DNA of 32,000 nucleotides from an uncultured Erysipelotrichaceae bacterium (lineage in GTDB: Bacteria > Bacillota_I > Bacilli_A > Erysipelotrichales > Erysipelotrichaceae). The notes under the pieces are model-generated. The model saw only the letters and a list, made by a program, of their open reading frames with translations, had not been told where the DNA came from and made no database searches. This document shows, one piece after another, positions 18,337 through 20,346 of this stretch. The DNA lies in assembly GCA_964401865.1 (NCBI GenBank), contig CAYNZZ010000001.1, forward strand, positions 30,001-62,000, given 5' to 3'. A program made the translations under genes and the position numbers. Numbering within the stretch: position 1 is the first letter of the stretch; each line of letters begins with the position of its first letter.

Positions 18337-19470
18337 ATGCTTACAATAATCAAAGTTTTTGATGAAAAAGAATATTTAAATAATGTAATAACTCCTTTAT
18401 CTTTAAATGTTAAAAATATTATTTACATTTATCATCATAAACAAAGTAAAAATCGCTTAAATAACAATAAACTCGTACTTGAAAGATACGGAGATTTTAA
18501 TATTCATTACAAACAACTTGAGAATGATGAAAAAGAAATAGAAAGATATCTTAAAGAGTACGATGATGTGATAGTTGATGTTGGTTCAACTAAATATTTG
18601 TCGCTTATTTTATTTGAAAAAGCCCTTAAATATAATCATAAGATTATATATTATGATGGAGAAGAAAATGTAATCAAAGACTATCGGAGTCATAAAGTGA
18701 TAACGGATAAGGTCTTTTCTTTAACCATTGACGATTTACTCAGATTAAGCGGTGGTGTCATCAAAAATCATATGCACACACAACCCGATAGCAATGATAA
18801 AAAGACTAATGATTTAATAGTTGAAGTCGTCGAAAAATCGTTAGGTGATTATTCAAACTTCATTAGCTACATTCAAAAAGTAAATCATTCCATTATCAAA
18901 GATGAAAATGGATATCGTATTAAAGATGTAAATAAAATAATTACTGATAATCTCTATAAAAAGTATGAACCATATCATCTATTTGATATTAAGCACGATA
19001 AAATCACTTTTTTAAATAAAAGAATAGAAGATTTATTTAAAGTATCTGGTTCATGGCTAGAATCTTATATTTACTTAATATTAAAAAGAAGCGAAATATT
19101 TGAAGAAGTAATGATGAGCGTGATGATTGATTTTTCCGAGGACAAAGATAACAATTATCCGATTATGTGCGAAATCGATGGTATTGCAGTTAAGAATAAT
19201 CGGCTTTGCTTTATCAGTATTAAATCAAACAAGGTTGAAACTGACGCTTTAAATGAAATTAAAACTCATCAGGAGAGATTCGGCAACAGATTATCAAAAC
19301 CAATAATTTGCACTTTAGATAAATTGAGAGAAATGAATCCGAGTATTTATCTGAAGGCACATGGATTAAAGATAGGTATTATTGATTATGATCATATAAA
19401 ACAAAATGAAATCATTAGCACCATAAATAGCATTATTAACAATACATACAATTACATAAATCGTTTATAA
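18337..19470 (+). CDS. CARF-like Rossmann domain fused to a PD-(D/E)xK nuclease-like domain (Card1/Can2-like, DUF1887-type architecture). This is a putative call from motifs only.
   Basis: About 378 aa. The N-terminal alternating beta/alpha pattern includes DVIVDVGSTKYLSLILFEKA (compare the CARF D-x-TGGTK-x-M motif) and then KIIYYDG. The C-terminus reads GSWLESYIYLILKRS...MCEIDGIAVKNNRLCFISIKSNKVE, matching the remembered Card1/Can2 pattern G-WFE-YV ... NE-D-V ... N-L-FIECKT. The ATG lies 1 nt after the recR stop (the TTG at 18325 is an alternative start), and there is no SD. Confidence 0.5.
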   Translation: MLTIIKVFDEKEYLNNVITPLSLNVKNIIYIYHHKQSKNRLNNNKLVLERYGDFNIHYKQLENDEKEIERYLKEYDDVIVDVGSTKYLSLILFEKALKYNHKIIYYDGEENVIKDYRSHKVITDKVFSLTIDDLLRLSGGVIKNHMHTQPDSNDKKTNDLIVEVVEKSLGDYSNFISYIQKVNHSIIKDENGYRIKDVNKIITDNLYKKYEPYHLFDIKHDKITFLNKRIEDLFKVSGSWLESYIYLILKRSEIFEEVMMSVMIDFSEDKDNNYPIMCEIDGIAVKNNRLCFISIKSNKVETDALNEIKTHQERFGNRLSKPIICTLDKLREMNPSIYLKAHGLKIGIIDYDHIKQNEIISTINSIINNTYNYINRL

Positions 19471-19479
19471 TATAAGTGT

Positions 19480-20346
19480 ATGACAGCGATCGCTTACATA
19501 ACTGATTCAAAAATGTTAGAGAATCATCGTTTATTAAGAAATGATACGATGAATTTTTGGCGCTTATCTACTAATATAAATTTTAGTGATTTTAAAATCG
19601 GCGATTTAGTATTCTTTTTGAGCAAAGACAAAATACATCGCCGTCATGGAGAAAAAGGGATTATCGGTTTTGGACGATTAAAAGAGTTAAGGGTATACAG
19701 CCCAAACACGATGTGGAAGAAATACGGCAAGAACAACGGATATATTTCTAAGAAAGAATTTATCGGTGCTATCAACAAGGTTAGCAAAGATTCTAAGACC
19801 CCAAATAAAATATCTAGTTTGTATTTAACTGATGTAGTTTTCTTTCAAAATCCAATTTATTTAAGCGAATATGGAATGAATATTTCAAAACAGATAGAAA
19901 GTTATATTTACTTAAATGACATAAACATTCCTTTTAAAATTTTAGAATACGCTAAAAATGCCATTGATCCTTGGACAGTTGCTGATAATAGTGAAAAACT
20001 ATGCGAAAGAGAACAGATAAGGTTGTATTTAAATTATTTCTCAAGAAATATAAGTAAACTACCGCTTAGCGATAAAGCTAAAAATAATACTGTCAAGGCA
20101 CTAAAAAAGTATTCGATTGAACATCCGGAATATGAACTGGTTAATAGTGATGAGTTAAAACTTTATAAGATAAATGAAAACAAGCTTACTATCGTTTTTT
20201 ATAAAGAAAAAAACTTAGATGATAGGATTATTATTGGACAAGCTTATCTATATCGTTATTATTTTCTTAATCAATATCCATATGATATAGATATTGATTT
20301 TAAAGTTATTGGTGAAGAAGATTTGACTAGAATATTAAATGACTAA
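19480..20346 (+). CDS. Hypothetical protein with an N-terminal PUA-like (EVE/ASCH-type) domain and a C-terminal half of unknown function
   Basis: 288 aa. Residues 1-100 (AYITDSKMLENHRLLRNDTMNFWRLSTNINFSDFKIGDLVFFLSKDK...GIIGFGRLKEL.VYSPNTMWKKYGKNNGY.SKKEF) follow the remembered pattern A-ITD..W..FL......NFW.PS....F..L.PG.PF.FK......I.G.G.F......AW..FG..NG, which is found N-terminal to HNH nucleases. No nuclease motif was recognised here. Confidence 0.4.
   Translation: MTAIAYITDSKMLENHRLLRNDTMNFWRLSTNINFSDFKIGDLVFFLSKDKIHRRHGEKGIIGFGRLKELRVYSPNTMWKKYGKNNGYISKKEFIGAINKVSKDSKTPNKISSLYLTDVVFFQNPIYLSEYGMNISKQIESYIYLNDINIPFKILEYAKNAIDPWTVADNSEKLCEREQIRLYLNYFSRNISKLPLSDKAKNNTVKALKKYSIEHPEYELVNSDELKLYKINENKLTIVFYKEKNLDDRIIIGQAYLYRYYFLNQYPYDIDIDFKVIGEEDLTRILND

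Follow-up and report, generated by a model that had tools for sequence, protein, structure and literature searches.

A vertically inherited orphan CARF nuclease gene and its PUA-like neighbour near the replication origin of Erysipelotrichaceae

Near the replication origin of an uncultured Erysipelotrichaceae bacterium we found two adjacent genes, termed gene 1 and gene 2 here, that seem to be fixed as a pair in the core genome across a large clade of this family and do not look like a mobile defence island. Gene 1 encodes an orphan nuclease of the Can2/VC1899 family with a CARF domain, and gene 2 encodes a protein that starts with a PUA-like domain. Tentatively, and with somewhat less than even confidence, we propose that they represent a CRISPR-independent, vertically inherited reader-nuclease pair in the Erysipelotrichaceae core genome, in which the CARF site would be independent of cA4 and cleavage would be gated by gene 2.

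Results and Discussion

Genes 1 and 2 in the origin region

The window, i.e. the whole stretch of 32,000 nucleotides that was analysed, covers the oriC region with the gene order dnaA-dnaN-recF-gyrBA ... serS-tadA-dnaX-ybaB-recR ... mnmG. The features relevant here were the following:

17739..18335, + strand: recR, open reading frame, last conserved gene of the tadA-dnaX-ybaB-recR block, stop codon TAG at 18333-18335
18337..19470, + strand: gene 1, 377 aa, orphan Can2/VC1899-family CARF and PD-(D/E)xK nuclease
18337..18720, + strand: gene 1 CARF (Rossmann-like) domain, aa 1-128, from the ortholog alignment
19033..19371, + strand: gene 1 PD-(D/E)xK nuclease core, aa 233-345, with invariant active site
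19466..19471, + strand: candidate TATAAT -10-like box, from sequence, overlapping the gene 1 stop and 8 nt 5' of the gene 2 ATG
19480..20346, + strand: gene 2, 288 aa
19480..19974, + strand: gene 2 N-terminal PUA-like (ASCH/EVE-type beta-barrel) domain, aa 1-165, from AF2 model and Foldseek
19975..20346, + strand: gene 2 C-terminal domain, aa 166-288, fold without assignment
20369..20444, + strand: tRNA-Gln (CUG), from ARAGORN and Rfam
20456..20489, + strand: terminator-like hairpin and T-run 3' of the tRNA, from a consensus scan only, closing the predicted transcription unit
21715..23583, + strand: mnmG (gidA), open reading frame, GIDA Pfam domains in orthologues

The ATG of gene 1 at 18337 lies 1 nt past the recR TAG (with TTG at 18325 as the start codon instead, the two genes would overlap), and gene 1 ends with a TAA at 19468-19470, with the gene 2 ATG following 9 nt further on. 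These coordinates agree with the spacing given in the original prediction, which had placed two open reading frames of 378 and 288 aa between recR and tRNA-Gln; the positions and the second length were correct, and the first product is 377 aa long. RecR Pfam domains were found in the orthologous genes of loci L001-L006, and RecR identity across loci was 49-79%. Orthologues of gene 1 were present in 54 and those of gene 2 in 247 species-representative genomes, and the AlphaFold2 models of both proteins were confident (pLDDT 91.8 for gene 1 and 90.0 for gene 2). Both are therefore genuine, uncharacterised genes and not chance open reading frames.

A Shine-Dalgarno sequence was absent from both genes as stated previously, with anti-SD duplex energies of -1.4 / +1.2 kcal/mol for gene 1 and +0.1 kcal/mol for gene 2, compared to -7 to -11 kcal/mol for about half of the neighbouring genes. 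That most neighbours have strong ones was somewhat overstated, since dnaX, tadA, recF and three downstream open reading frames also lacked them. A perfect TATAAT starting at -22 to -12 of gene 2 was found in 28/51 gene 1-bearing loci, with 0.7% expected. Gene 2 thus appears to have its own conserved -10 box, from which a separate leaderless or near-leaderless transcript would be predicted. The box was not listed by a generic promoter scan owing to its weak -35 match.

Gene 1 belongs to the Can2/Card1/VC1899 family

Gene 1 encodes a full-length CARF and PD-(D/E)xK protein of the Can2/Card1/VC1899 family. It matched the PADLOC model CARF4--CARF_PDDEXK over residues 4-361 of 377 (E 5e-24) and the PDB profiles of Can2 7bdv (E 3e-10), 8bao and 1xmx. 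The best full-length Foldseek match was 1xmx (VC1899; E 1.7e-22, TM 0.76), and TM values to 7bdv, 8q3y, 6xl1 and 1xmx (Can2, Card1, VC1899) were 0.62-0.77. The score against Pfam Card1_endonuc (PF09002) was 24.0 bits at a gathering cut-off of 26.4; many orthologues carry a precomputed PF09002 match and are named 'DUF1887 family protein'. A Can2/Card1-like fusion of a CARF domain and a restriction-endonuclease fold had been read from the sequence beforehand, with Pfam and structure searches suggested as a check, and the CARF and PD-(D/E)xK matches by PADLOC, PDB profiles and Foldseek bear this out. A weak, sub-cut-off Pfam match to a TscA antitoxin in the CARF region (E 0.015) was disregarded. 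A profile search for the nearest outgroup of gene 1 returned in-clade members only.

The active site of gene 1 consists of E242 (19060-19062), E279 (19171-19173), D281 (19177-19179), S294 (19216-19218) and K296 (19222-19224). These residues as well as E307 and H311 were invariant in 54/54 orthologues, E279/D281 align with E276/D278 of Can2, and the nuclease core was the most conserved domain of gene 1 (56% mean identity). The invariance of the catalytic residues argues for gene 1 being an active nuclease, as far as can be predicted from sequence. The change from ExK to SxK was ruled out as inactivating because Ser356 takes the place of the ExK Glu in the active TbrCan2, and because S294 shows no variation among the orthologues, just like the rest of the catalytic residues.

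Within the CARF domain the ligand loops were best conserved, comprising D9, H33-H34, D81-V-G-S-T-K86-Y-L and Y105-Y-D107-x-E-E110-N-x-I-K114-x-Y116-x-x-H119. Across the 54 orthologues D107 was conserved in 53/53, Y105 in 51/53, and K114 and Y116 in 50 each, with D/E at the D9 position in 49; D9, D/E10, D107, E109 and E110 make the pocket acidic. The cA4 contacts conserved between Can1 and Can2 are Ser19, Thr42, Lys99 and Tyr118 (SthCan2 numbering). Mapped by profile alignment to Can2, which is sequence-based and not a structural superposition, gene 1 keeps two of these four, K86 for Lys99 (K/R in 49/53) and Y105 for Tyr118 (51/53), whereas the Ser19 equivalent is D/E in 49/54 and the Thr42 equivalent is His in 42/54. 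According to the Can2 paper, VC1899 is not regulated by cA4. Judged by this alignment, the gene 1 pocket would resemble that of the cA4-insensitive orphan VC1899 more closely than that of a cA4-activated effector, and both the two missing contacts and the acidity of the pocket speak against a cA4-activated effector, the class whose architecture was named initially.

VC1899 (Vibrio cholerae, PDB 1XMX), an orphan of the DUF1887/Can2 family, likewise consists of CARF and PD-(D/E)xK domains and, as observed for gene 1 in the window and the inspected loci, is not located beside a type III CRISPR system. Both proteins are acidic at the Can2 Ser19 position and basic at Lys99, and both keep the nuclease Glu/Asp. 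A Can2 fold, an acidic pocket that is probably not compatible with cA4 and the lack of cas context in the loci inspected place gene 1 among VC1899-like proteins. Identity between the two is only ~15%, however, and the gene 1 family has Ser for Glu in the ExK triad and keeps the Tyr118 equivalent, where VC1899 has Val. Moreover gene 1 occurs lineage-wide, is syntenic and vertically inherited, and is always accompanied by the PUA-like gene 2, whereas the literature searched describes neither such a partner nor such a genomic pattern for VC1899.

With the cA4-activated type III ancillary nucleases Can2 and Card1 (SthCan2 7BDV, TbrCan2 8Q3Y, TresuCard1 6XL1) gene 1 shares the two-domain fold and the catalytic E...ExD...(E/S)xK site, in its Ser variant also with the active clade-1 TbrCan2. 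The equivalents of Lys99 and Tyr118 are kept in common, those of Ser19/Thr42 being Asp/Glu and His in gene 1. Unlike these nucleases gene 1 has a fixed core location and vertical descent and showed no CRISPR-Cas context in the loci inspected, and it carries an extra invariant block EENVIKDYRxH after CARF strand 5. The TbrCan2-type SxTTS motif is replaced by SxKSNK.

Gene 2 carries a PUA-like domain outside the known profiles

Searches of Pfam, NCBIfam, PADLOC and PDB sequences with gene 2 yielded noise only. By Foldseek the closest solved fold of the N-domain was ZmASCH 5y6c (E 1.5e-6, TM 0.70), with AF2351 2kku and the McrB N-terminal domain 6n0s also matched, and its top viral structure matches (BFVD) were phage ASCH proteins. 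The PUA-like beta-barrel is thus shared with ASCH proteins such as the ribonuclease ZmASCH (5GUS) and the ac4C amidohydrolases YqfB/TthASCH; gene 2 differs from them by a strand-helix extension at the N-terminus and by its C-domain of 120 residues. Neither gene 2 nor any of 80 orthologues, nor the HNH-fused relatives described below, contained the octapeptide GxKxx(E/T)xR that defines ASCH, so that the essential Lys and Glu/Thr of ASCH proteins are missing. There was no Pfam ASCH match at E <= 1, no Pfam EVE match and no EVE structure among the top 50 PDB matches, and the reader domain matched none of the Pfam EVE, ASCH, YTH or SRA models. Of the PUA-like (EVE/ASCH-type) start ascribed to gene 2 in the original prediction, the PUA-like fold is upheld and the assignment as a bona fide ASCH or EVE domain is not. 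An ASCH-type ac4C eraser or ribonuclease was ruled out by the missing motif.

The aromatic residues F26, W27, F38, F45, F46 and W79 of the N-domain were invariant in 80/80 species, and mean identity was 57% for the N-domain, 26% for the C-domain and 61% for RecR. The fast-evolving C-domain (helix-helix-strand-strand-strand-helix-strand-helix in the AF2 model) has only G253 near-invariant (with Q/H254) and gave no confident structural or profile match in PDB sequence, Foldseek, hhalign and BFVD searches. A decayed PD-(D/E)xK nuclease or a domain akin to CARF was also considered for it, which was rejected with hhalign probabilities below 5% against the gene 1 domains and probabilities of about 0.1 or less for PDB matches with a restriction-endonuclease fold.

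The N-domain is homologous to the N-domains of HNH-nuclease fusion proteins, which are uncharacterised distant relatives; a fusion of such modules to HNH nucleases had been anticipated. These relatives were rare singletons in mobile contexts, one being annotated as McrA-like and two being located in prophage or resolvase contexts. They may be regarded as a Rosetta-stone-type link between the gene 2 reader domain and a nuclease. PUA-like readers and nucleases are likewise combined in the PUA-superfamily modification-dependent restriction enzymes, which include EVE-HNH VcaM4I, SRA-HNH and related enzymes (Lutz et al. 2019, PMC6765204). In contrast to these, reader and nuclease are separate proteins here, the nuclease is of the PD-(D/E)xK type with a CARF domain and not HNH, and the reader carries an unrelated C-domain and is a core gene, found in the sister clade without an adjacent nuclease. 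The patchy mobile distribution of type IV restriction enzymes also differs from the single gain, vertical descent and fixed origin-proximal locus of the pair.

Conserved adjacency and vertical descent of the pair

The co-occurrence and synteny test suggested earlier for related genomes showed that gene 1 immediately precedes gene 2 in 54/54 loci, where the two overlap or are only a very short distance apart, and the pair was intact in L062 and L065 although the linkage to recR was broken there. In 26 further species gene 2 was present without gene 1 and kept the same invariant residues; its function therefore needs no gene 1. Of the two, gene 2 is the older, and gene 1 goes back to a single gain, followed by vertical descent with occasional loss, including several clean losses without loss of gene 2. 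The earlier view of the two genes as a unit thus holds for their adjacency, but not in the sense of a symmetric unit.

In Mantel tests, the two genes correlated with recR as well as with one another at r 0.86-0.92. Gene 1 co-diverges with recR across 49 species, and gene 1 and gene 2 distances correlated with r 0.92, or 0.68 after controlling for recR. CRISPR ancillary genes are expected to be patchy in distribution. No copies of gene 1 or gene 2 were found on viral contigs (IMG/VR). Such core-gene-like inheritance and the absence of viral copies count against a patchy defence island as a reading of the sensor/defence module that had been proposed.

A scan of the window detected no cas gene, CD-NTase or CRISPR-like repeat array within 32 kb, confirming the stated absence of cas10, CD-NTase and CRISPR array. 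Genes were also inspected in about a dozen of ~90 related loci, again without a cas, CRISPR or CD-NTase gene; the remaining loci were screened for operon genes only. A cOA source farther away in these genomes is conceivable. The profile libraries and literature searched contained no described system with such a pairing, in line with the earlier statement to that effect.

The ancestral gene order was recR-fhs-gene2-mnmG and, once the pair had formed, the basal order was recR-fhs-gene1-gene2-mnmG. In the clade lacking gene 1, gene 2 is joined closely to mnmG, its stop overlapping or directly adjoining the start of that gene. The distance of mnmG 3' of gene 2 was <500 nt in 25 loci and 0.5-6 kb in 7, and mnmG was absent within at least 3 kb downstream of gene 2 in 30 loci. 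Of 47 loci scanned, no more than three had tRNA-Gln after gene 2, namely the window and its closest relatives L007 and L009, which rules out the tRNA as an integration site or functional cap. The abutment of gene 1 to recR is secondary, and tRNA-Gln is an incidental neighbour outside the module. A module attached to the recR operon and capped by tRNA-Gln, as originally envisaged, is consequently not supported by the basal order, by the seemingly own -10 box of gene 2 or by the narrow occurrence of the tRNA.

A possible reader-nuclease pair and its alternatives

In the proposed pair, gene 2 would be the old lineage-wide protein, whose aromatic-lined PUA-like N-domain would bind an unusual or modified nucleotide, be it free as a mononucleotide or part of a nucleic acid. 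Gene 1 would be a dimeric, metal-dependent nuclease of the Can2/VC1899 family that was acquired once directly upstream of gene 2 and then retained. Its CARF domain would still be a ligand or regulatory site, only not for cA4, and cleavage of single-stranded DNA or RNA by gene 1 would be gated by this site together with the gene 2 protein. Gene 1 and gene 2 may accordingly be coupled physically or functionally, and the pair might act in restriction of mobile elements or in genome or RNA maintenance.

The adjacency of both genes could also reflect the inertia of a very stable origin-proximal block rather than function, a question on which a single independent rearrangement (L062/L065) bears, and their correlated rates may reflect shared phylogeny and saturation. 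Furthermore, gene 2 predates gene 1, seems to have a promoter of its own and is as tightly linked to mnmG as to gene 1, all of which counts against the pair reading, as does its C-domain, for which this reading has no explanation. Independent functions with a merely historical adjacency are thus a possibility to be taken seriously, if on balance a doubtful one. Gene 2 would then be a housekeeping RNA or tRNA factor of an fhs-gene2-mnmG block (one-carbon supply and U34 tRNA modification), and gene 1 an orphan nuclease of the VC1899 type that was domesticated for a task of its own, such as DNA repair or recombination downstream of recR, and that was inserted here by chance and stayed because rearrangements are rare in this region. 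This would fit the ancestral order, the overlap between the gene 2 stop and the mnmG start in the clade without gene 1, the short distance to mnmG in 25 loci, and an N-domain constraint similar to that of RecR (57% vs 61% identity) and unchanged without gene 1. RNA and tRNA are targets of PUA/ASCH proteins, gene 2 appears to have its own -10 box, and gene 1 starts overlap recR or fhs stops, suggesting translational coupling to upstream genes. On the other hand, gene 2 lacks the ASCH catalytic octapeptide, and the proteins that resemble it in sequence are not RNA-modification enzymes but nuclease fusions from mobile contexts. Whereas mnmG was missing within at least 3 kb in 30 loci, gene 1, if present, was never apart from gene 2 (54/54), and the partial rate correlation of 0.68 persisted with recR removed.

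The same asymmetric dependence, with gene 1 never found without gene 2 and gene 2 often alone, could point to an addiction or immunity-type pair, in which gene 1 would be a potentially toxic nuclease tolerated only where restrained by gene 2 as an antitoxin-like inhibitor instead of a sensor. The tight or overlapping junctions are compatible with this, a separate gene 2 promoter, if the prediction is right, would permit independent expression, and the sub-threshold TscA-antitoxin match in gene 1 adds little weight. We regard this as improbable, since the ancient origin of gene 2, its core-genome status and its nucleotide-reader fold are not those of a typical small labile antitoxin, and since there was no sign of mobility; the clean losses of gene 1 are neutral for this idea. 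Least probable of all is that gene 1 is an ordinary Can2/Card1 effector. In favour are its homology to Can2 and Card1 over the full length, the identical fold, the intact active site and the two cA4 contacts K86 and Y105. Against it stand Asp/Glu and His at the Ser19/Thr42 equivalents within an acidic pocket like that of VC1899, one fixed core locus co-diverging with recR, and the lack of cas genes both in the 32 kb window and in the inspected parts of related loci.

Implications for orphan CARF proteins

Structures of orphan CARF proteins such as VC1899 have been available since 2004, and we know of no ligand, partner or role for them. The gene 1 family offers a handle on this question, with at least 54 orthologues, an invariant nuclease site, a strongly conserved pocket that is not cA4-like and an obligate gene 2 neighbour with the fold of a modified-nucleotide reader. 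Species that lost gene 1 and kept gene 2 represent natural 'knock-outs'. With this family, the sensing and the role of CRISPR-independent CARF nucleases become directly testable. Gene 2 in turn defines a PUA-like domain family missing from Pfam, which occurs in three architectures (stand-alone, HNH-fused and gene 2 type).

The reader-nuclease pair might further be part of a CRISPR-independent CARF signalling pathway fixed in the core genome, an idea we consider unlikely at present. Here, an endogenous ligand other than a cyclic oligoadenylate would activate the Can2-like nuclease. This ligand, for instance a nucleic-acid end or a modified mononucleotide, would be recognised, produced or presented by the gene 2 protein, and the CARF effector would have been repurposed for genome or RNA maintenance beside replication and recombination genes. 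If true, this would provide the first physiological ligand and partner for orphan CARF proteins of the VC1899 type. The inheritance of gene 1 in Erysipelotrichaceae indicates that a defence-type effector can turn into a stably inherited core gene.

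Gene content and expression signals of the locus

The window represents a chromosomal origin region in which a T-box-controlled ABC transporter, dnaA, dnaN, recF, gyrB, gyrA, serS, SRP RNA, tadA, dnaX, ybaB and recR are followed by gene 1 (CARF plus PD-(D/E)xK nuclease), gene 2 (PUA-like), a tRNA, two unknown ORFs, mnmG, a psuG-like gene and cell-envelope glycosyltransferases.

Features between recR and the terminator-like hairpin
17739-18335, + strand, recR, stop codon TAG
18337-19470, + strand, gene 1, ATG start, TAA stop at 19468-19470, 377 aa
19480-20346, + strand, gene 2, 288 aa
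20369-20444, + strand, tRNA-Gln (CUG), 3' of gene 2
20456-20479, + strand, terminator-like hairpin, 3' of tRNA-Gln

As originally predicted, the gene 1 ATG lies 1 nt past the recR TAG, gene 2 starts 9 nt past gene 1, and the 32-kb window is free of cas genes, CD-NTases and CRISPR-like arrays. The length of gene 1, previously given as 378 aa, was counted here as 377 aa; translation could alternatively begin farther upstream, at a TTG (18325).

The earlier claim that both genes lack a Shine-Dalgarno (SD) sequence agreed with anti-SD duplex energies of -1.4 (gene 1) and +0.1 kcal/mol (gene 2), with about half of the neighbouring genes at -7 to -11 kcal/mol. In most loci the gene 1 start overlaps or abuts the upstream stop codon (recR or fhs), which fits translational coupling and would account for the missing SD. 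A perfect TATAAT (19466-19471) lies over the gene 1 stop codon and ends 8 nt before the gene 2 ATG. Such a motif starting at -22 to -12 of gene 2 was found in 28/51 gene 1-bearing loci against a background expectation of 0.7%, these loci being phylogenetically related so that a binomial P overstates their independence. Loci without gene 1 showed a normal SD before gene 2 and a -10 box farther upstream. The TATAAT 5' of gene 2 predicts a separate gene 2 transcript, which would start near 19478-19480 and be leaderless or near-leaderless.

Five SD-less genes of the window carry a TATAAT whose last base lies about 7-10 nt ahead of the start codon, and leaderless or very short-leader mRNAs may be in wide use in this organism.

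SD-less genes and ORFs with TATAAT (upstream interval in brackets)
dnaX, start 15593 (15579-15592)
gene 2, start 19480 (19466-19471)
ORF, start 21386 (21372-21385)
ORF, start 24697 (24682-24696)
ORF, start 28598 (28584-28597)

Elsewhere in the window, serS (12991-14292) is interrupted by an in-frame TAA at 13897-13899. The two pieces (12991-13899 and 13903-14292) share one reading frame and jointly span the tRNA-synt_2b core; a pseudogene, read-through or an error in assembly or sequencing may explain the split. Recoding of this TAA seems unlikely because other window genes terminate in TAA. The SRP RNA (15033-15118; Rfam, 60.7 bits) extends into the longest possible tadA ORF (15104-15574, GTG at 15104) at its 5' end, and translation of tadA probably begins at the ATG of 15140 instead. 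The 265-aa ORF after tRNA-Gln (20528-21325), with N-terminal predicted membrane helices and a Tyr/Asn/Asp-rich C-terminal half, had no Pfam match and appears lineage-specific, because mnmG lies about 300 nt after gene 2 in other loci. A small ORF of about 100-111 aa, likewise unmatched in Pfam, runs over the start codon of mnmG in the window (21386-21721) and in two distantly related loci from other genomes (L088, 7430-7747; L087, 10869-11171) and may be a conserved gene, so far unannotated, ahead of mnmG.

Gene 1 encodes a Can2/VC1899-type protein

PADLOC CARF4--CARF_PDDEXK profiles matched the whole gene 1 protein (E 5e-24, residues 4-361). Pfam Card1_endonuc scored 24.0 bits on the window protein against a threshold of 26.4, which many orthologues pass. 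A profile of 29 orthologues matched SthCan2 (7BDV, E 3e-10), Dysgonomonadaceae Can2 (8BAO) and VC1899 (1XMX) in PDB, and the AlphaFold2 model (pLDDT 91.8) superposed full length on VC1899 (E 1.7e-22, TM 0.76) and also on SthCan2 (TM 0.70-0.77), TbrCan2 and Card1. The predicted architecture of a CARF domain joined to a restriction-endonuclease-like domain was therefore right. The closest known entity is VC1899 of Vibrio cholerae, itself still an orphan with ligand and partner not known.

Can2 has the catalytic residues Glu276 and Asp278, within a broader family motif E-ExD-(E/S)x...K. The active site of gene 1 (E242, E279-x-D281, S294-x-K296) was invariant in 54/54 orthologues, as were E307 and H311, and the nuclease domain was better conserved than the rest of the protein, at a mean pairwise identity of 56%. 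To judge from these residues, gene 1 encodes an intact-looking nuclease of the Can2/VC1899 type. Replacement of the classical ExK Glu by S294 is no sign of inactivity, since the active clade-1 TbrCan2 has Ser356 at exactly this position.

Four cA4 contacts are common to Can1 and Can2 (Ser19, Thr42, Lys99, Tyr118); VC1899, which is not cA4-regulated, has Asp, Asp, Arg and Val there. By profile alignment the gene 1 equivalents are D9/E10, H33, K86 and Y105, with D/E in 49, H in 42, K/R in 49 and Y in 51 of the 54 orthologues, and therefore two of the four contacts are retained. Gene 1 and VC1899 are alike in having an acidic residue in place of the phosphate-binding Ser. The canonical ligand loops (DVGxxKYL and Y105-Y-D107-x-E-E-N-x-I-K114-x-Y116-x-x-H119) were the most conserved CARF stretches, D107 being conserved in 53/53, which argues that something specific still binds this site; its ligand is probably not cA4. 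Gene 1 shares fold and catalytic site with Can2 and Card1, but not their full set of cA4 contacts nor, in the window and among the genes inspected in related loci, their CRISPR association.

Gene 2 carries a PUA-like domain of a narrow family

Gene 2 had no match in Pfam, NCBIfam, PADLOC or PDB sequences. In a confident structural model (pLDDT 90), residues 1-165 form a predicted PUA-like beta-barrel with ZmASCH (E 1.5e-6, TM 0.70), AF2351 and the S. marinus McrB N-terminal domain as best solved matches, and phage ASCH proteins as best viral ones. The octapeptide that defines the ASCH family, GxKxx(E/T)xR with essential Lys and Glu/Thr, is absent from gene 2, its 80 orthologues and its remote relatives. 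True ASCH membership was rejected, because the fold fits but the octapeptide is missing, and the domain is called PUA-like here and filed under neither ASCH nor EVE. Of the originally predicted PUA-like start of EVE/ASCH type, the fold stood and the assignment to ASCH or EVE did not.

An exhaustive profile search of 1.84 billion cluster representatives returned 263 clusters only, which marks the family, absent from Pfam, as narrow. Its domains have in common the motifs ITD, NFW, GDxFFFLxK, ExxIxGxG and W-x-x-Y...NG, with F26, W27, G41, F46, W79 and G87 invariant. Distant relatives were stand-alone proteins of 155-163 aa and, as predicted for this module, N-terminal fusions to an HNH endonuclease (PF01844). 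These fusions are singletons, one named McrA-like by IMG, in mobile contexts (L089, 484-1773 and flanks; L090, 6001-6990): one at a prophage end with integrase/serine recombinase, Cro/CI repressors, ImmA-like M78 peptidase and YqaJ/RecT, the other near a resolvase and a DprA/SLOG-like gene. Architecture and context are those of modification-dependent restriction enzymes. The fusions probably represent type IV restriction enzymes not yet characterised, whose reader domain is not covered by any Pfam model.

In gene 2, the last 120 residues (helix-helix-strand-strand-strand-helix-strand-helix) are fast-evolving, with 26% identity vs 57% in the N-domain, and gave no confident structural or profile match, the gene 1 domains included.

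Synteny and inheritance of the pair

With one genome scanned per GTDB species, gene 2 relatives were found in 247 species. The best 80 of these 247 are almost all Erysipelotrichaceae, including Solobacterium, Holdemania, Anaerorhabdus and many rumen and gut MAGs.

Gene orders assigned by HMM in the best 80 of 247 gene 2 loci
recR-gene1-gene2: 42 loci
recR-fhs-gene1-gene2: 8 loci
gene1-gene2, upstream contig too short: 2 loci
gene1-gene2, recR absent upstream (L062, L065): 2 loci
recR-fhs(-x)-gene2, without gene 1: 15 loci
recR-gene2 directly: 4 loci
gene 2 only: 3 loci
undetermined gene order: 4 loci

Co-occurrence of the two genes was confirmed, gene 1 lying directly 5' of gene 2 in 54/54 gene 1-bearing loci. 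In a neighbour-joining tree of gene 2 these loci group in a single large clade, within which gene 1 has been cleanly lost a few times (L024/L034, L039/L058); it is also missing from Holdemania, Anaerorhabdus and relatives. Pairwise distances of gene 1 correlated with those of gene 2 (r 0.92) and recR (r 0.86), values reached by 0/2000 permutations, and the partial correlation between gene 1 and gene 2 with recR controlled was 0.68. IMG/VR viral contigs held no relatives of either gene.

The most divergent gene 1 loci read dnaX-ybaB-recR-fhs-gene1-gene2-(~100 aa ORF)-mnmG with overlapping junctions. In the clade without gene 1, gene 2 runs up to or into the start of mnmG, and in 25 loci no more than 500 nt separate gene 2 from mnmG. 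We read recR-fhs-gene2-mnmG as the ancestral order, with gene 1 inserted once between fhs and gene 2, and fhs later lost or moved in many lineages, leaving gene 1 abutting recR as in the window. On this reading the recR adjacency is secondary, so that the proposed attachment of the pair to the recR operon does not hold. The proposed tRNA-Gln cap is incidental: of 47 loci, just three have it, namely the window, L007 and L009.

fhs (formate-tetrahydrofolate ligase) between recR and gene 1/gene 2
L082, 6314-7981
L069, 3334-5043
L087, 3343-5004
L088, 3739-5406

In the basal arrangement fhs, gene 1 where present, gene 2 and mnmG follow one another closely. MnmEG relies on a folate as one-carbon donor, and together with the fhs/mnmG linkage this could hint at a tRNA-modification role for gene 2.

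Erysipelotrichaceae bacterium OH741_COT-311 (L065) represents the one lineage with the pair away from recR, in a neighbourhood (4830-10058) that is damage-tolerance or mobile-element-like.

Neighbours of the pair in L065 (translations read by eye)
4830-5246, YolD-like small gene beside the polymerase gene
5243-6736, Y-family DNA polymerase gene, divergent, adjoining the pair
9207-10058, Bro-N/antirepressor-like ORF downstream of the pair

Possible function of the pair

The locus combines a conserved, non-cA4-like CARF pocket with a PUA-like partner whose reader domain is elsewhere joined to nucleases; nuclease and reader are obligately adjacent, and a single gain was followed by vertical inheritance at a core-genome location, with no CRISPR context in the window or among the genes inspected in related loci. 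We tentatively favour a CRISPR-independent reader-nuclease pair, in which the gene 2 protein would recognise a modified or unusual nucleotide and a gene 1 dimer would cut single-stranded nucleic acid with the CARF site as gate, serving either anti-mobile-element restriction or genome/RNA maintenance.

Functional independence, with gene 2 as a housekeeping factor tied to fhs and mnmG and gene 1 as a domesticated orphan nuclease, is the main rival and nearly as likely: gene 2 persists unchanged where gene 1 is missing, has its own predicted promoter and is under a constraint similar to that on RecR. An immunity or antitoxin-like relation between the two would account for their asymmetric dependence and is considered unlikely. 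That gene 1 acts as a standard cA4-activated Can2 for a type III system located elsewhere is also unlikely given its CARF pocket, fixed locus and vertical descent.

The literature searched described no pairing of a CARF-PD-(D/E)xK nuclease with a PUA-like reader, in line with the original view that the arrangement was not recognisable as a described system. A reader-nuclease pair of this kind is not a categorically new system; it joins an orphan CARF nuclease with PUA-reader/nuclease logic, and its unusual feature is that it is vertically inherited and core-genome. While its mechanism is only proposed, the pair makes the role of CRISPR-independent CARF proteins accessible to concrete comparative and experimental study.
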